DNA of 64,000 bases, taken from positions 134,833 to 198,832 of the forward strand of contig CAVUHO010000003.1 in NCBI GenBank assembly GCA_963741385.1. The letters run 5' to 3'. Under the pieces are notes generated by a model. That model was not told where the DNA came from. It saw only the letters and a list, made by a program, of their open reading frames with translations, and did no database searches. Positions 9,472 to 17,665 of this stretch are shown one piece after another; position 1 is the first letter of the stretch, and every line of letters starts with the position of its first letter. Source of the DNA: Candidatus Sulfomarinibacteraceae bacterium (GTDB lineage: Bacteria > Acidobacteriota > Thermoanaerobaculia > Thermoanaerobaculales > Sulfomarinibacteraceae). Made by a program: the position numbers and the translations under genes.

Positions 9472-10509
9472 TCAGTGGGAGTCGGCCATGGACGCAAGCC
9501 ACGCCAGCGGGCGTTGAGCCCCGACGCACAGCAGCCGCATTCCCACGGCGCCTTTTTCCGTCATGAGATCGGCCCGGTCGGCGCCCCGGTCGGCGGCGGG
9601 GATCTTCGACGCCGCCTGTTCGATCAGGGCTTCGGTGGCCGCGTCGAGGGTCGACGCCAGGATCCGGCCGTCGAGACCGACGATGGCGGCGGGTCGCGGG
9701 AGGGCGCCGAGGAGCCCCACCAGCAGATCCCGGTAGAGCGCCGTTCGTCCCACCATGGTGTTTTCGACCTCCTGCTGGCGGTCGAGCACCGCGTTGAGCT
9801 GGCGGGCGACCGCGCCGAGTTCGTCCGTGTACTGCATCGCGGCCCGGCGGTCGAAGCTGCCGCCGGCGATCGCCTCCGCGACCTCGGCCAACTCGTCGAG
9901 CCGTTCGAGGAGGGTCCGGTTCAACGCGCGCGACAGAAAGGCCAGGGAAAACAGCGCCAGCAGAACCAGGAGGGCGAGGACGGTTGCTCGTTGCGATGCG
10001 GTTGCCTGCGCTTGCCGGTCGGCCTCGACCATCGCCTGGTGGTTGATCTCCAGAAGATCGATGACGCCTGCCTTGACGGCTTCGAACTTCGGAAAGGTCT
10101 CCTCGTCGTAGGCGCGCAGGGGATATTCGGGCCTCGCTCCCAGCAGCTGGTCGCGGGCTGCGGCGAAGGCCGCGAACCGTTGTTCGATGTCCTCGATAAC
10201 CGGCTCTTCCTCCGGGAGGGTGATGTTGGCTCGAGCGCGAGCTAACGCCTGATGGAAGGACTCTTCCGACGCCTCGAGCGCGTGGCGCGCGTCGTTCTTG
10301 CCGAGGAGCAGTGCGAGGACCGCGCTGTCCTGGCGTTCCAGCGACTCCATCATGGCCGTGGAAGCGCGCACGCTGTCGAAGTTCTCCTTGAGCACCCGGC
10401 CGATGTTGCTGCCGAGGGTGTGGAAGCCGAGGGCCGCGCCGGCCGCGATGATGACGAGGAGGATCACCAGGTACCAGTAGCCGAGCAGGATTCGTGTGGC
10501 GAGCCGCAT
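9472..10509 (-). CDS. Membrane sensor protein with a periplasmic helical sensor, HAMP and a PAS-like remnant, and no kinase or other output domain
   Basis: 345-aa ORF. N-terminal TM, then LKENFDSVRASTAMMESLERQDSAVLALLLG...LARARANIT, homologous by eye to the sensor of the kinase at 22182. A second TM is followed by a HAMP-like segment (LNRTLLERLDELAEVAEAIAGGSFDRR...DELGAVARQLNAVL). No H-box or ATPase motifs. Confidence 0.7.
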   Translation of the reverse strand: MRLATRILLGYWYLVILLVIIAAGAALGFHTLGSNIGRVLKENFDSVRASTAMMESLERQDSAVLALLLGKNDARHALEASEESFHQALARARANITLPEEEPVIEDIEQRFAAFAAARDQLLGARPEYPLRAYDEETFPKFEAVKAGVIDLLEINHQAMVEADRQAQATASQRATVLALLVLLALFSLAFLSRALNRTLLERLDELAEVAEAIAGGSFDRRAAMQYTDELGAVARQLNAVLDRQQEVENTMVGRTALYRDLLVGLLGALPRPAAIVGLDGRILASTLDAATEALIEQAASKIPAADRGADRADLMTEKGAVGMRLLCVGAQRPLAWLASMADSH

Positions 10510-10511
10510 GG

Positions 10512-11168
10512 TCAGACCTTGGCCGCGAATCTGGCGACGGCGCTGGAGGATCCGATGACCATGAGAGTCTCGCCGGCCTGCAGCGCCTCGTCACGGCTCG
10601 GGTTGGCGACGATCTTGTCGCCTCGGTGGATGGCGACGACGGTGATGTCGAAGCGGCGGCGGACGTCGAGCTCGACCAGGGTCTTGCCCACGTACTGCGC
10701 GGGAACCTCGAGCTCGGCGAGCTCGATGTTATCGCCGAGGTCCACACGGTCGAGGACGTTGGGGTGCGAGAGTCGATAGGCAAGCCGCTGGCCCATCTCC
10801 ACCTCGGGGCTCACAACCTCATGTGCGCCCACCGCCCGCAGCACGCGGGCGTGGAGGTCGCTGAGCGAACGGGCGACGATGCGAGGCACACCGATCTGGC
10901 GCAGCAGCGCGGTCGCCAGGATCGAAGCCTCCATCGACTCGGCGCCGATGGCGACCACGGCGCACGACACCCGATCGAGCCGCAGGTTGCGCAGCGCCTC
11001 CTCGTCGGTCGCGTCGGCGCGAACCACGGCGTCGAGCTCGGTGGCCATCCGGTTGACCTCGTCCTCGTTGGTGTCGATGGCGAGCACGGTCTGACCCTCG
11101 CGCGCGAGGCTCGTGGCGACCATCCTCCCGAACATGCCGAGCCCAATGACGACAAACTCTCCGACCAT
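10512..11168 (-). CDS. trkA: Trk/Ktr K+ uptake regulatory subunit (RCK N+C domains)
   Basis: Within ORF 10512..11765. The conserved protein starts at MVGEFVVIGLGMFGRMVA (Rossmann GxGxxG; ATG at 11168). The 218-aa length fits a TrkA-N plus TrkA-C protein. It lies 14 nt downstream of the trkH stop. Confidence 0.88.
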   Translation of the reverse strand: MVGEFVVIGLGMFGRMVATSLAREGQTVLAIDTNEDEVNRMATELDAVVRADATDEEALRNLRLDRVSCAVVAIGAESMEASILATALLRQIGVPRIVARSLSDLHARVLRAVGAHEVVSPEVEMGQRLAYRLSHPNVLDRVDLGDNIELAELEVPAQYVGKTLVELDVRRRFDITVVAIHRGDKIVANPSRDEALQAGETLMVIGSSSAVARFAAKV

Positions 11169-11182
11169 GCGAAAGCCTCCCT

Positions 11183-13291
11183 TCACCCGACCATGATTCT
11201 GGCCTCGGGGTAGCCGACGGCGGCCTGCCGCTTCCTGCCGAACAGGAGCGCGAGGCTCAACGGGCCGATGCGGCCGATGAGCATGACAATGACAACCACC
11301 AGCTTGCCTGAAATCTTGAGTCCGGCCGTCGCGCCGAGTGAAAGGCCGACGGTGCCGAACGCACTCACGGTTTCGAACACCAGCGGCAGAAAGCCCTGGT
11401 TCTCCAGCGCCATCAGCGCCGTCGCCCCGCCCACGACCACCAGCATCGCGACGACAGCGATCGCCGCGCAGCGGAACACAGTCTCGAGGCTGATCGTGCG
11501 TTTGAGCAGCACCACCCGCTGGCGGCCGCTGGCGATCGCCGGGATCGCACTGAGCAGCACCACCAGCGTCGTCGTCTTGATGCCGCCGCCGGTGCCTCCG
11601 GGCGAGGCGCCGACAAACATCAGCGCCATGACGAGCATCAACGTCGCCGGCTGCAGAGCGTCGAAGCCCACCGAGTTGAAGCCGGCGGTGCGGCAGGTCA
11701 CGCTCTGGAACAGGGCGTTGACCAGCTTGTCGAGGGTGCCGAGGCCGGCCAGTCCGTGGTTCCACTCAGCGAGCGCGATCCCCACAAAACCGAACGCGGT
11801 CAGCGCGGCGGAGGCCAGGAGCACGATTCTCACCTGGGTCGCGAGCCCGACGTGGGCGCTGCTCTTGAGCCGCAACCAGGCAAAGGCGAGCACCGCGAAT
11901 CCGAGTCCGCCGAGGGTGATCAACGTCGCCATCACCAGGAGAACCAACGGCTGATCCTGAAATCCCACCAACGAGTCCGAGTAGAGGGCGAAGCCGGCGT
12001 TGCAGAAGGCGGAAACGGAGTGGAAGATCCCCAGCCAGGCGGCGGTCAACGGCGGTGCCCCGCGCTCGAATTCGACCGCACCGAGGATCGACGCGCCGAT
12101 GCCCTCCACCAGCAGCGTGCTGACGACGATGAAGCCGATCAGCCGGTAGGCGGCCGCCACCGACGGCAGGTCGAGCATGGCCCCCAGCGCCTGCTCGCCG
12201 CGCAGGCCGAGCCCGCGCCCGAGCAGGAGGGCGGCGAAGGTGGACAGCACCATGATATTGAGGCCGCCGATCTGGATCAGGAGCAGGACCACAAACTGGC
12301 CGAAGAACGACAGGTCGTGCGGCGTGTCGAGAACGATCAGGCCGGTGACGCAGGCCGCGCTGGTTGCCGTGAAGAGGGCGTCGACCGGCTGCAGAGGCGT
12401 GGCGTGGGCTGAGGCCGCGGGAAAGGTCAACAACAGGGTTCCGAAGCCGATCAACACCACGAAGCTGACCAGGATGAGCAGCGCCGGTCGTCCGTAGAAA
12501 AACTGGAGCACCTCGGCAATCAGGCTGCTGCGGGTCGCGAGAAGCACCAGAACGACGGCGTCGAAGGCGGCCAGGAGGGCGAGAGAGACCTCGGGCCGGG
12601 CGGCGGCCGCAATGGCGGCGGCCACGAGCACGAAAGGCGCGAAGACGTCCCAGCGCCCGCGTTTCGACAACTTGCGAAGGAAGCCTCCGGCGACCGCGAC
12701 CGCGAGCACCTGCAACGCGACGCAGACCGAATGTGCGGGCGCTCTCCAGCCGATTCCGTAGCCGACCACCGCGACGGTTGCGACCAGGGCGATCGTCAGG
12801 AGATGGCGGGCTGCGGGGCCGTTGAGCGCGAGCCAGGCGGCAACGTCGTCATCCGGATCGGATGGCTCCCGGCCGAGGAGCGTGAAGCGCGTCCTGACTG
12901 AGAGCACAATGCGGCTCAGAAGATAGAAGTTCCACAGAACGACGAGGCCTGCGATCACCGGGTTGGCGACCAACGGCGGGACGAACAGGCCGATGTTGAT
13001 GGCGAAGATCGCCATGGCACCGTAGGGCCCCCAACGGCTGCGGCGCGTCTGCGCCAGGATCGTCATCGTCAGGAGGACGAGGATTCCCGCCGAGTAAATG
13101 ACGCCGAACGGTGTGACTTCGTCGGATGGTCCGAAGTAGCTCTCCGGCATCGAGACCGCGAACTGCGCCAGCAGCGCAGCCGCCACCGCTCCCACCTGCC
13201 GCGCCATCTGCAGCCGGGCGCGCACGCCTGCGTGGTGCGCGTCGTCGGCGGCCGGGGGAAACATCTGGGGTCGCGGCATGGCATCGATCAT
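11183..13291 (-). CDS. trkH: TrkH/KtrB-family K+ transporter membrane subunit with a long N-terminal multi-TM extension
   Basis: 702-aa ORF. The core from about residue 270 (LLILVSFVVLIGFGTLLLTFP...TATSAACVTGL...CNAGF...RTAGFN...GGIKTTT) matches the TrkH/KtrB selectivity-loop pattern. The first 270 aa or so are extra hydrophobic segments. Confidence 0.85.
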   Translation of the reverse strand: MIDAMPRPQMFPPAADDAHHAGVRARLQMARQVGAVAAALLAQFAVSMPESYFGPSDEVTPFGVIYSAGILVLLTMTILAQTRRSRWGPYGAMAIFAINIGLFVPPLVANPVIAGLVVLWNFYLLSRIVLSVRTRFTLLGREPSDPDDDVAAWLALNGPAARHLLTIALVATVAVVGYGIGWRAPAHSVCVALQVLAVAVAGGFLRKLSKRGRWDVFAPFVLVAAAIAAAARPEVSLALLAAFDAVVLVLLATRSSLIAEVLQFFYGRPALLILVSFVVLIGFGTLLLTFPAASAHATPLQPVDALFTATSAACVTGLIVLDTPHDLSFFGQFVVLLLIQIGGLNIMVLSTFAALLLGRGLGLRGEQALGAMLDLPSVAAAYRLIGFIVVSTLLVEGIGASILGAVEFERGAPPLTAAWLGIFHSVSAFCNAGFALYSDSLVGFQDQPLVLLVMATLITLGGLGFAVLAFAWLRLKSSAHVGLATQVRIVLLASAALTAFGFVGIALAEWNHGLAGLGTLDKLVNALFQSVTCRTAGFNSVGFDALQPATLMLVMALMFVGASPGGTGGGIKTTTLVVLLSAIPAIASGRQRVVLLKRTISLETVFRCAAIAVVAMLVVVGGATALMALENQGFLPLVFETVSAFGTVGLSLGATAGLKISGKLVVVIVMLIGRIGPLSLALLFGRKRQAAVGYPEARIMVG

Positions 13292-13488
13292 ACGCCGGCG
13301 GGACCTCCAGTCGCGGGGTTGATGCTCCCGAAGCCGGTTGCGGCATGAACTCTCGTTGTGAATCGATCGGCTGCGAGGTCTTGTTCCGGGGACGTGGCCC
13401 CGAAACCGCTGTAGGATGGTCGCCGCTCAGCCCCGCCGCGCACCGGAGACGACTCCGGACGGGACGGCCGGGGCACAAAGGGGGATCC

Positions 13489-13983
13489 ATGAAAAAGTCT
13501 TATCTGATGTTCGTGATGGTGTGCTGTGTTTTGGTCGCAGTGATCGGCTGCAGCAAGCCGGGGCCGGTGGTCGAGGCCGAGGCCGACGCGACGATGGACG
13601 CGGTCACGGACGAGATCGTCGCCGAGGATGCGGGAACTGCGGTCCGGAACGACGTCATCTTTGTCTGCAACTGTGGGCCTGACTGCACGTGCAAATCGGT
13701 GAGCACCGAGGCCGGCACCTGCATCTGCGGCAAGGAGCTGGCGGCTGCCCATGTCGTCAAGATCGAGGGCAACGAAGCGCTGCTGTGCACCTGCGGCGGC
13801 GACTGCACCTGCGCGATCAACGCCGACGACGAGACCAAGTGCGCGTGCGGCACCGACGTCCGGCGGGTGAGCCTGGAGGGCAGCGGCCTCTACTACTGCA
13901 ACTGCGGTGGTTCGTGCACCTGCAACTTCATCTCCGACGAGCCGGGTACCTGCAGCTGCGGCATGGAGCTGGTCACCAGCTGA
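13489..13983 (+). CDS. Cysteine-rich triple-repeat lipoprotein (metallothionein-like CxCGxxCxC...CxCG motif x3)
   Basis: In-frame ATG at 13489 within ORF 13126..13983. Lipobox LVAVIGC. Three repeats: CNCGPDCTCKSVSTEAGTCICGKEL, CTCGGDCTCAINADDETKCACGTDV, CNCGGSCTCNFISDEPGTCSCGMEL. Confidence 0.7.
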   Translation: MKKSYLMFVMVCCVLVAVIGCSKPGPVVEAEADATMDAVTDEIVAEDAGTAVRNDVIFVCNCGPDCTCKSVSTEAGTCICGKELAAAHVVKIEGNEALLCTCGGDCTCAINADDETKCACGTDVRRVSLEGSGLYYCNCGGSCTCNFISDEPGTCSCGMELVTS

Positions 13984-14176: not shown

Positions 14177-14989
14177 ATGCGTCACCCATCTTCGGTCCGT
14201 ACGGCGGTTCTGGCAGTTGTGGTTTCGATGGCGTTCGTCACCCCTTCCACTTTTGCCGAAGACGACAACGCCGATGTGGCTGAAGAGGCGAAGCTGTTGG
14301 CCAACGCCAACAACCCGCTGGCAAACATCGTGGCGTTCAACATCCAGAACTACTATTACTCCTCTCTCTACGGCACCGACGACAGCGCCAACACTGCCTG
14401 GCTTCGCTATGTGCGGCCCTTCGGTCGCTGGTTGCTGCGGGCCTCGTTGCCGATCGCAACGGTGCCGACGCCCGCCTCGCCGGACCCGACATCGGGTCTC
14501 GGCGACTTCAACGCCTTCCTCGCCTACCTGGTCTCCGACCCGTCATCCCCCACGCAGTTCGGCGTCGGGCCGTTGATCGCGGCCCCCACTGCCACCGACG
14601 ATGCCCTAGGTTCGGACACCTGGCAGGCGGGAGCGGCGGCGGTGTACTTCAACGCCAAGTCGCGCCGGGTGCAGTACGGCGGGTTGGTCACCTATCAGAC
14701 CTCGTTTGCTGGCGATGGGACCGACGTCAGCCAGGCGGCCGTTCAGCCCTTCTACATGTTCCAGCTCGGCAAGGGCACGTATCTCCGCGGTGCGCCCGTC
14801 TGGGTGTACGACTTCGAGAACGACTCGTACAGCGTGCCGTTCGGTTTAGGGATCGGTCAGGTCATCAAAAACGACAAGACCGTCTATAACATATTTATCG
14901 AACCCCAGTGGACGATCCTCCACGACGGCGTCGGCCAGCCCGAGTTCACGGTCTTTGTCGGGCTCAACATCCAGTTCTTGCCGAAGTAA
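14177..14989 (+). CDS. Outer-membrane beta-barrel protein (MetA-pathway/transporter-like family, by motif recollection)
   Basis: 270-aa ORF with signal peptide ending TFAEDD and an N-terminal NNPLANIVAFNIQNYYY motif. Alternating beta-strand pattern. The C-terminus is FVGLNIQFLPK, with the aromatic F four residues from the end. Confidence 0.6.
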   Translation: MRHPSSVRTAVLAVVVSMAFVTPSTFAEDDNADVAEEAKLLANANNPLANIVAFNIQNYYYSSLYGTDDSANTAWLRYVRPFGRWLLRASLPIATVPTPASPDPTSGLGDFNAFLAYLVSDPSSPTQFGVGPLIAAPTATDDALGSDTWQAGAAAVYFNAKSRRVQYGGLVTYQTSFAGDGTDVSQAAVQPFYMFQLGKGTYLRGAPVWVYDFENDSYSVPFGLGIGQVIKNDKTVYNIFIEPQWTILHDGVGQPEFTVFVGLNIQFLPK

Positions 14990-15095
14990 CGCGGGGTGGA
15001 GATTCAAGGGTGGTGTCACGCCGCTGAGATCAGCCTGCGGAAGGGTTGCAGCGGTCTTCTTAGGTTCGAAAGTTTTAATGTCAAGGGAGAATGTC

Positions 15096-15785
15096 ATGAA
15101 GAATCAAAGAGTCCTGCGCATGGTGCTGGCGTCTGTGGTGGTGCTGACGATGGTGGGTTTCGCGGGCGTGGTGTCCGCTCAGGACGAATCGGCGGCACAG
15201 GCCGGTGAAAAGACCGGCGTCGAAGGCACGTTCGTCCGCGTTGCCGAGAACAACGAGGGTTTTGTCGTGCTTGGCTATACCACGGCCAACGGCTCGGTCA
15301 AGGAGAAGTGGATGCTTCTCAACGTCGGCATCACCCTTCAGGACGGCGTCAAACCTCAGAAGATCACCCGCGATCAGATCAAGCTCGTGACTCCGGACGA
15401 CCAGGTGATCTCCCTCGCAACCCAGGAAGAGTTCATGAAAGGCTCCGGGGTGCTCGACCCGATGAACGCACGCGCCAACATGGAGTCGGAGTCGATCAAT
15501 TACTTCCCGAACGGCCGCACCCGTCCCTGCCGCATCGGTTTCTTCGGCGACATGGACCGGGCCGTCGGCAACCTCGCCTTCAACCAGGTGGATGTGGACG
15601 ACAGGTCGGCGTGCATGGGCAGGGTTTACTTCCAGGTGCCAGAAGGTGTCCAGTACGGCAACTACAACCTCGACGTCCAGTTCGCCGACAGCATCGTCAG
15701 GGTTCCGTTCAAGATCATGACGAAGGAAGAGGCCAAGGCGTTCGACAAACAGTGGAAGGCAGCGGAGAAGGAAGAAAAGCACTAG
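15096..15785 (+). CDS. Secreted hypothetical protein
   Basis: ATG at 15096 preceded by AGGGAGA. Signal peptide MKNQRVLRMVLASVVVLTMVGFAGVVSAQ. Lys/Glu-rich C-terminus. No recognised domain. Confidence 0.55.
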   Translation: MKNQRVLRMVLASVVVLTMVGFAGVVSAQDESAAQAGEKTGVEGTFVRVAENNEGFVVLGYTTANGSVKEKWMLLNVGITLQDGVKPQKITRDQIKLVTPDDQVISLATQEEFMKGSGVLDPMNARANMESESINYFPNGRTRPCRIGFFGDMDRAVGNLAFNQVDVDDRSACMGRVYFQVPEGVQYGNYNLDVQFADSIVRVPFKIMTKEEAKAFDKQWKAAEKEEKH

Positions 15786-15807: not shown

Positions 15808-16185
15808 GTGTTCCCCTCGCGGGGGAACACCGGTGATCTGATGACCCGCGCCCTCAACGTCTACAACAACAGCTTCCGCGGCGCCTCGGCGATGGCCTTC
15901 TGGTCCTTTACCGTGTACGACAATCAGTCGCGCTCGATGCTGCAGACGCCGCAGAAATATCCACGCGCGGGCAGCCAGAGCTACCCGTCGCCCGCCGCCG
16001 AGGCCAGTGCCGATGGCTCGACAACGGTGTACTTCGGTCCGAAGCAGCCGCAGGGCGTCGCCCGCGGCAACTGGATTCAGACCATGCCAGGCAAGGGCTG
16101 GTTCACGATCATCCGGCTCTACAGCCCGCTGCCGTCGTTCTTCGACAAGACCTGGCGGCCGGGCGAGATCGAGCTGGTGAAATAG
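15808..16185 (+). pseudogene. C-terminal fragment of a DUF1214-family protein (gene remnant)
   Basis: The 125-aa ORF covers only the family's C-terminal signature (FWSFTVYD...GNWIQTMPGKGWFTIIRLYSPL...FFDKTWRPGEIELV). Full-length family members are several-fold longer. There is no upstream DUF1254 part. Confidence 0.6.
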
Positions 16186-17245: not shown

Positions 17246-17665
17246 ATGAAAAGAAACGTGCTGGTGGTGATCGTGGCGGTGTTGTTGCTGAGCGTGTCCG
17301 GGGCCTGGGCGCAACAGGAGATCGTCGACAATATGATGACCGCCTGTGCGACCGAGATCGAGACCTACTGCAGCCAGGTGACCCCGGGTGAGGGCCGGCT
17401 GCTGGCCTGTGCCTATGCGCACGAGGACAAGCTCTCCGGAGAGTGCAGCTGGGCGATCTACAAAGGCGTCGCGGAGCTCGAGGCTTTCGTCGACGCGTTG
17501 GTCGAGGTCGTGACGGCCTGCGAGGACGATCTGATGAAGTTCTGCGCCGAAGTCGAACTCGGTGAGGGCCAGGTCGCGACCTGCCTGCTCGAGCACAAGG
17601 CCGAGGTCACCGAAGACTGCCGCGCGGCGGTCGAGGACACCGGTCTCGAGGTCGTCGAAAACTGA
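17246..17665 (+). CDS. Secreted cysteine-rich-repeat protein
   Basis: ATG at 17246 after GGAGGAG. Signal peptide ...LLSVSGAWAQQ. Two repeats of C-x(7)-C-x(11)-L(L)AC-x(13-15)-C (TACATEIETYCSQVTPGEGRLLACAYAHEDKLSGEC and TACEDDLMKFCAEVELGEGQVATCLLEHKAEVTEDC). Confidence 0.7.
   Translation: MKRNVLVVIVAVLLLSVSGAWAQQEIVDNMMTACATEIETYCSQVTPGEGRLLACAYAHEDKLSGECSWAIYKGVAELEAFVDALVEVVTACEDDLMKFCAEVELGEGQVATCLLEHKAEVTEDCRAAVEDTGLEVVEN

Follow-up and report, generated by a model that had tools for sequence, protein, structure and literature searches.

The gene at positions 13489..13983 of the window (the whole 64,000-nucleotide stretch of DNA that was analysed; + strand, stop codon included) is a real, conserved gene, as seen from its translation and its homologues. 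It encodes a Cys-rich lipoprotein precursor of 164 amino acids, here called P0001, with three tandem six-cysteine (Cys6) modules. From sequence comparison, the Cys6 module is best read as a derived knuckle of the HMBD type (heavy-metal-binding domain, Pfam PF19335), and what is new here is an HMBD/zinc-ribbon knuckle that is triplicated, has six Cys per module and occurs in a free-standing exported lipoprotein. With modest confidence we favour the view that P0001 is a lipid-anchored envelope protein whose HMBD-derived Cys6 modules bind a soft metal, and that it serves as a periplasmic buffer or relay. Metal binding, the identity of the metal, the stoichiometry and the direction of transfer are what we infer from the evidence given below.

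Gene and protein

A Shine-Dalgarno-like GGGGGA, read from the sequence, is found at 13480..13485 (+ strand), 3 nt 5' of the ATG. Codons 1-21 (13489..13551, + strand) specify a predicted signal peptide with the lipobox V-I-G-C21. Bacterial lipoboxes follow the rule [LVI][ASTVI][GAS]C, and in the N-terminus of the precursor, MKKSYLMFVMVCCVLVAVIG|C21, a positively charged start and a hydrophobic core are followed by VAVIG|C21, which agrees with this rule. The mature protein is predicted to begin with a lipidated Cys21, and these features support the export and lipid anchoring of P0001. Residues 22-52 (13552..13644, + strand) constitute an acidic tether, predicted to be disordered, which was delimited by charge count and pLDDT and has 8 D/E and 1 K/R in its 31 residues. 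The lipobox and the acidic linker described in an earlier note on this DNA were thus both found.

The remainder of the protein is made up of the three Cys6 modules, all encoded on the + strand. Module 1 (residues 53-93; 13645..13767) has its cysteines at positions 60, 62, 66, 68, 78 and 80, with a long beta-strand after them. Module 2 (residues 94-130; 13768..13878) has C100, C102, C106, C108, C118 and C120, and in module 3 (residues 131-164; 13879..13980) GLYYC137, C139, C143 and C145 are followed by PGTC155, C157, GM159 and EL. The only other cysteines of the precursor are Cys12, Cys13 and Cys21. The earlier note had described three repeats with six Cys each and a spacer of seven or eight residues; the repeats and the 18 cysteines, which lie within the last 112 residues, stand as described, whereas the spacer is nine residues long in every case, all three modules reading exactly CxCGxxCxC-x9-CxCG. 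A search for C.CG..C.C in the six frames of the 64-kb window gave three occurrences, every one inside the 13489..13983 ORF. GLYYC, previously noticed before one of the repeats, is at residues 132-137, ahead of the module 3 cysteines. Of the three modules, only module 3 has retained G-M in the second knuckle.

Family, conservation and distribution

A set of 5.8 billion proteins contained 107 homologues with 45-88% identity, all of them labelled 'hypothetical', and 188 matches at E<=0.001 were obtained among cluster representatives (approximately 190 clusters at 50% identity). In a cross-phylum alignment of 20 sequences all 18 module cysteines were invariant or at least 90% conserved, which bears out the six invariant Cys per repeat proposed from the single sequence. 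Several Gly residues, H88, N138, N146 and M159 were also kept in this alignment, and the CGM motif of module 3 was present in at least 90% of it. Across the wider family, module 2 is the most conserved of the modules.

When whole P0001 was compared with Pfam, NCBIfam and PDB sequences, no match rose above noise and nothing usable was returned, in line with the statement of the earlier note that the protein could not be assigned to a family. The whole-family profile gave sub-threshold zinc-finger hints alone against PDB (NEIL3 GRF and Fpg), and no description of the Cys-rich lipoprotein family was found in a literature search. The family is unnamed, and no curated family covers P0001.

Members of the family are found, according to genome records, in Thermoanaerobaculia (Ca. 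Sulfomarinibacteraceae, likely the clade of the window), Holophagae, Rokubacteria, Desulfuromonadales, Desulfobulbales and other Desulfobacterota, and in Thermodesulfovibrionales and other Nitrospirota. The gene is single-copy in its own genome. Of 24 genomes of the same genus, 20 carry it, and none was detected in 16 genomes from a sister family; its distribution is therefore patchy.

Every homologue examined carried an export signal, in most cases with a lipobox, which is replaced by an ordinary signal peptide in Nitrospirota and some Holophagae homologues. A lipobox-like motif was recognized in 137 sequences of a set of 256 family members that includes many fragments. The tether varies in length and sequence, and in a subset of homologues the acidic stretch is replaced by Cys/His/Met-rich stretches (e.g. 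MHQGMHQGHGSMEGMG or GCHGHHHRGMWAHGSGCKMM), which are typical of periplasmic copper proteins.

Relationship to HMBD

Interpretation of the Cys6 module as an HMBD-type knuckle derives from distant family members that match HMBD, together with a profile comparison; of these, the distant full-length members are the more persuasive evidence. They keep the Cys6 form in module 2, and their module 1 or module 3 is a four-ligand knuckle of the form CxxC(H)...CxxCG (e.g. VYVCPDCHVTALQAGKCPKCGKDM). Pfam HMBD was matched by 6 of 22 distant members, the best E being 5.6e-10. In one of the family sequences (P0250, a singleton on a 1,050-bp contig) the HMBD match scored 28.8 bits (cut-off 23.6) and fell exactly at the position of module 1.

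In the profile comparison, a repeat profile (A5) made from 75 single repeats was aligned by hhalign with a profile (A6) of 35 HMBD sequences taken from CopA-like and adaptor-like ORFs of related genomes. The alignment, with 89% probability and an E value of 2.2e-6, placed ..S-x-x-P-G-x-C-x-C-G-x-x-L of the repeats against ..D-x-P-G-x-C-P-x-C-G-M-x-L of HMBD. Its score was 25.4, while the 200 column shuffles averaged 8.3 and reached 20.1 at most; the match is limited to the second knuckle (19 columns), which counts against the reading. The score above all 200 shuffles and the intermediates among the distant members argue for common ancestry with HMBD. When the single repeats were searched against Pfam, HMBD was the most frequent family (9 of 75, best E 0.0043, below threshold), and weak zinc-ribbon matches were obtained too.

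By Pfam's own criteria P0001 is not an HMBD member: the whole protein gave no HMBD match at E<=1 and did not reach the gathering score of 23.6 bits, and an HMBD search of its own genome (G000) matched two other genes, not the Cys-rich gene. In HMM searches against PDB the HMBD profile found 8OVL, which was not recovered with the repeat profile. The HMBD consensus is Y-T-C-P-M-H ... P-G-x-C-P-x-C-G-M-x-L. In place of its C-P-M-H and C-x-x-C-G-M, the modules of P0001 read C-x-C-G-x-x-C-x-C and then C-x-C-G. Judged by these motifs, module 3 is the most HMBD-like of the three modules.

The earlier note had drawn attention to a resemblance to SmtA. SmtA has a GLYYC segment and CxC-rich spacing, and P0001 could on these grounds be an exported relative of the SmtA/BmtA-type bacterial metallothioneins. 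Weak Pfam matches point in the same direction: the plant Ec (PEC) metallothionein family PF02068 gave the best match to whole P0001, with E 0.63 and 10.8 bits, and Metallothio_5 matched 4 of the 75 single repeats. These matches are far below the cut-offs (the gathering score of PF02068 is 31.8 bits), and the prokaryotic metallothionein family was absent from the Pfam results at E<=1, both for P0001 and for the 75 repeats. GLYYC corresponds more plausibly to the conserved 'aromatic-x-C' with which an HMBD/zinc-ribbon knuckle begins, and HMBD is the best-supported kin. In the absence of profile support for either P0001 or the repeats, homology to SmtA or other metallothioneins was rejected; such a relationship is largely refuted at the sequence level and very improbable.

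Predicted structure

An AlphaFold2 model of P0001 was made from a 128-sequence alignment. Residues 50-164 had pLDDT values of 87-96, and the values of the signal peptide and the linker (residues 29-46 of the tether) stayed below 50. The predicted fold is all-beta; DSSP assigned strands only and no helix. A long strand (83-93) pairs with residues 96-100, so that hairpins are predicted to join consecutive modules into one rigid body. A model of one module was likewise confident (pLDDT 87). Neither the whole-protein model nor the one-module model had a structural match in PDB by Foldseek; with regard to a rubredoxin knuckle, the outcome was confident models with beta-hairpins and no PDB match.

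In the HMBD core of L. pneumophila CopA (PDB 8OVL), which has a rubredoxin-knuckle fold, M44, C59 and M61 coordinate Ag(I), and by inference Cu(I), in a trigonal manner; the core is similar to the N-terminal periplasmic domain of SilB with bound Ag (PMC11970713). The same fold is shared with zinc-binding domains, and the LpCopA HMBD may hold Zn without Cu (PMC11970713). This is one of the observations in favour of a structural zinc-ribbon array, in which each module would contain Zn(Cys)4 or Zn2Cys6 for the sake of the fold only and the rod would be a scaffold or a protein-protein adaptor. Weak single-repeat matches to DUF1922 (5 of 75, best E 7.9e-5) and to the GRF zinc finger are consistent with such an array, and the rigid, confidently predicted rod is more like a structured domain than a floppy metallothionein. 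However, six Cys per module exceed the need of a structural Zn site, no partner protein is conserved across the family, and the Cys/His/Met-rich linkers, together with the NosL, SCO1, multicopper-oxidase and Cus neighbourhoods (see below), point to metal handling. We regard the structural array as unlikely, and a metal-handling role of the modules remains the preferred reading.

Gene neighbourhood in the window

Upstream, a divergent locus on the - strand (9472-13291) contains genes for TrkH (702 aa, its N-terminus extended), for TrkA and for a membrane protein that has a HAMP domain and no kinase domain. Within the window's own clade, the Cys-rich gene has as its neighbours Trk genes for potassium uptake and genes for unknown exported proteins. 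Downstream, the two same-strand ORFs reported earlier were found at 14177..14989 and 15096..15785 (both +), encoding proteins of 270 and 229 aa, respectively, whose signal-peptide-like N-termini suggest export. Neither product had a match in Pfam, NCBIfam or PDB. The gap between 13983 and 14177 is 193 bp and no terminator-like site was detected in it.

A functional link of the Cys-rich gene to 14177..15785, as raised in the earlier note, appears weak. Both downstream genes follow a homologue only in the related loci L013 and L014, and this order is absent from the closest relatives (L008-L012); the 229-aa protein is encoded near a homologue in L009, L013 and L014 only. The 270-aa protein belongs to a large unnamed family with 1,769 matches at E<=0.001, which is about 15 times larger than the Cys-rich family. 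Because synteny is limited to L013 and L014 and the 270-aa family is so much larger, an operon with 14177..15785 was rejected as a general feature, and the downstream genes are considered neighbours only, not parts of the system.

Two other ORFs in this part of the window deserve mention in their own right. The 125-aa ORF at 15808-16185 (+) has DUF1214 alone (E 1.8e-21); since its counterpart in locus L001 is a 556-aa protein with DUF1254 and DUF1214, the copy in the window seems to be either what remains of a truncated gene or an ORF with a wrongly placed start. A 139-aa exported protein encoded at 17246-17662 (+) contains, in two stretches, the Pfam Cys_rich_FGFR repeat (PF00839, E 7.1e-14), an odd find in the bacterium of the window as this repeat is mostly eukaryotic.

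Gene contexts of the homologues

Neighbours were tallied by running Pfam on two genes on each side in about 80 loci, with crude gene calling. On one side 147 and on the other 159 different Pfam families were counted, no family occurred in more than five loci, and a universal conserved partner gene was rejected on this basis. About 70 of 81 neighbourhoods are unrelated to metals; approximately ten homologues adjoin genes for NosL, SCO1, multicopper oxidase or Cus-like RND proteins. In L006, L035, L037, L044, L063, L066, L067 and L083 the homologue directly precedes or faces the arrangement NosL-102aa-FtsX/MacB-ABC-336aa, often with SCO1/SenC, and in each of the four searchable genomes with this NosL cluster NosL is single-copy and located beside the Cys-rich gene. 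In L076 the Cys-rich gene is convergent with genes for a multicopper oxidase, a CusB-like adaptor (HMBD + YHS) and a CusA-like RND pump. In L067 it is flanked by a CusA-like gene and the ABC cluster, and in L063 it is accompanied by genes for a 1,361-aa protein with a multicopper-oxidase domain and for SCO1. The order on the contig of another homologue (P0097) is Cu-oxidase, CusB-like, CusA-like, homologue.

These copper-context loci are related to one another and belong to Desulfobacterota and Nitrospirota, not to the window's clade. In the genome of the window NosL was not found, and the single SCO1 is located away from the Cys-rich gene. A motif scan of the approximately 80 loci (six-frame ORFs of at least 80 aa) detected no canonical HMBD (CPMH...CxxCxM), no P1B-ATPase signature and only two HMA-like motifs.

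The recurrent cluster is of interest by itself. It consists of NosL, a 102-aa membrane protein, a permease of the FtsX/MacB type, an ABC ATPase and a 336-aa protein with no Pfam match (L006, 5659-9325), occurs also in L035, L044, L063, L066, L067 and L083, often together with SCO1, and has the appearance of a copper-related ABC system that differs from NosDFY and has yet to be described. On both sides of the homologue in L067 (6896-8879) there are several pseudo-ORFs of about 82-87 aa with 'GEGLRMT/FASLRMT'-type strings, which look like copies of a short dispersed repeat. In the window's own genome, two HMBD-bearing ORFs (995 and 779 aa) and a DsbA-like ORF were located about 25-35 kb past the end of the window (G000:C3:223919-234366); this is probably the copper-efflux locus of the genome. 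Several genomes of the same genus have HMBD-bearing ORFs on the same contig as the Cys-rich gene, about 55-85 kb from it.

Redox setting

The genome of the window, which is 95.65% complete, gave no match to DsbB or VKOR and encodes three DsbA-like thioredoxin-fold proteins, suggesting limited or unusual periplasmic disulfide formation. According to genome records, the hosts of the family are mostly anaerobes of sulfidic sediments and belong largely to sulfur-, sulfate- or metal-reducing lineages. Given the missing DsbB/VKOR match and the largely anaerobic hosts, reduced thiolates that bind metal are more likely than nine structural disulfides.

This bears on the alternative that P0001 is an exported structural or adhesive protein, free of metal and stabilized by pairing of the 18 Cys into nine disulfides. 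The Cys count is even, the AlphaFold2 fold is compact and all-beta, the three DsbA-like proteins are encoded in the genome, and the protein is placed outside the cytoplasm, where disulfides are common in many bacteria. Besides the redox setting, the Cys pattern itself speaks against it: the CxC/CxCG knuckle spacing and the relationship to HMBD are typical of metal sites, and the variants of the family exchange Cys pairs for CxxCH/CxxCG metal knuckles and show no pairwise loss of Cys. A disulfide-stabilized protein seems to us distinctly improbable, slightly more so than the structural zinc array.

The lineages of the hosts would also suit a periplasmic thiol carrier of sulfur or redox equivalents, for example one that shuttles persulfide/polysulfide or buffers the redox state in anaerobes of the sulfur cycle. 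P0001 has many exposed thiols, and cytochrome c genes are common near the homologues, by an uncontrolled count. Recurrent sulfur-metabolism genes are lacking beside the homologues, however; by sequence the modules are related to a knuckle that binds metal, and the specific gene contexts have to do with copper. Such a carrier function has little to recommend it, and we return to soft-metal binding by the Cys6 modules.

Proposed function

Following Sec export, P0001 would be lipidated at Cys21, and in the periplasm its three tandem knuckle modules would form a rigid, all-beta rod held by the disordered acidic tether. The modules may have originated from an HMBD/zinc-ribbon knuckle in which loop 1, C-P-M-H, grew to C-x-C-G-x-x-C-x-C by the gain of three Cys and a four-residue expansion, and the second loop changed from C-x-x-C-G-M to C-x-C-G(-M). 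With loop 1 expanded and loop 2 of the CxC type, six thiolates are expected to converge where the loops meet. Each module could then bind one or more soft metal ions at the tip of the knuckle, most probably Cu(I), with Ag, Zn, Cd and Hg as further candidates. The ligands would be the six thiolates, joined in module 3 by Met159, and the metal might be held as a small polynuclear cluster. P0001 would act as a high-affinity periplasmic metal buffer, store or relay, and in lineages with adjacent genes for NosL, SCO1, multicopper oxidase or Cus-type pumps it might exchange metal with those partners.

A bolder version of this proposal is offered tentatively. Each Cys6 module would assemble a Cu(I)-thiolate cluster of several metal ions (Cu4S6, for example), and the whole protein would be a lipid-anchored, exported kind of 'metallothionein' made of three copies of an HMBD knuckle. 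It would store copper in the periplasm of anaerobes, in a setting where sulfide renders the metal scarce, and hand it to partners of the NosL, SCO1 or Cus type.

Little is known about how strict anaerobes handle copper in the periplasm. Sulfidic sediments contain vanishingly little of the free metal, yet N2O reductase, oxidases and multicopper oxidases depend on it. If the proposal is true, a widespread, high-capacity thiolate protein tethered to the envelope would be a missing piece, as a store, buffer or relay, and in some lineages its gene stands beside the only NosL of the genome, together with SCO1. It would also mean that a sensor knuckle for one metal (HMBD) has been enlarged to a cluster module with six cysteines. 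Such a compact module for binding metal might be of use in bioremediation or biosensing.

Comparison with known metal-binding proteins

The HMBD of CopA and of SilB/CusB-type proteins has the same two-loop knuckle, with an aromatic-x-C start and then ...(D/E)-x-P-G-x-C-x-C-G-M-x-L, and is itself found in periplasmic proteins adjoining some homologues (such as the CusB-like protein of L076). The two differ in loop 1 (C-x-C-G-x-x-C-x-C in P0001, C-P-M-H in HMBD) and in loop 2 (C-x-C versus C-x-x-C), so that six Cys per module stand against three Cys, one His and two Met. They also differ in architecture: P0001 is a free-standing lipoprotein of three fused modules, whereas HMBD occurs as one or two domains ending a pump or ATPase.

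With the bacterial metallothioneins SmtA/BmtA and MymT, P0001 has in common its small size, very high Cys content, CxC motifs and presumed soft-metal thiolate chemistry. These metallothioneins are cytoplasmic; P0001 has a signal peptide with a lipobox, and its homologues have a lipobox or an ordinary signal peptide. P0001 differs from them further in lacking detectable homology, in its lipid anchor and in its predicted rigid, repeated beta structure.

The remark in the earlier note that an exported Cys-cluster protein is unusual is fair, with the qualification that Csp1 provides a precedent. The copper storage protein Csp1 of methanotrophs is a Tat-exported four-helix bundle that is lined with Cys and stores many Cu(I) ions. 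It resembles P0001 in being an exported, Cys-lined, and in the case of P0001 proposed, holder of Cu(I) outside the cytoplasm. The sequences are unrelated, and the all-alpha bundle of Csp1 contrasts with P0001, which would be exported as a Sec-dependent lipoprotein and for which AlphaFold2 and DSSP gave strands only.

The periplasmic copper chaperones NosL and SCO1/SenC share with the proposed role of P0001 the handling of Cu in the envelope; NosL is also a lipoprotein, and both adjoin a homologue in several genomes. They belong to unrelated folds and families and have one metal site each, in contrast to the 18 Cys in three modules of P0001.
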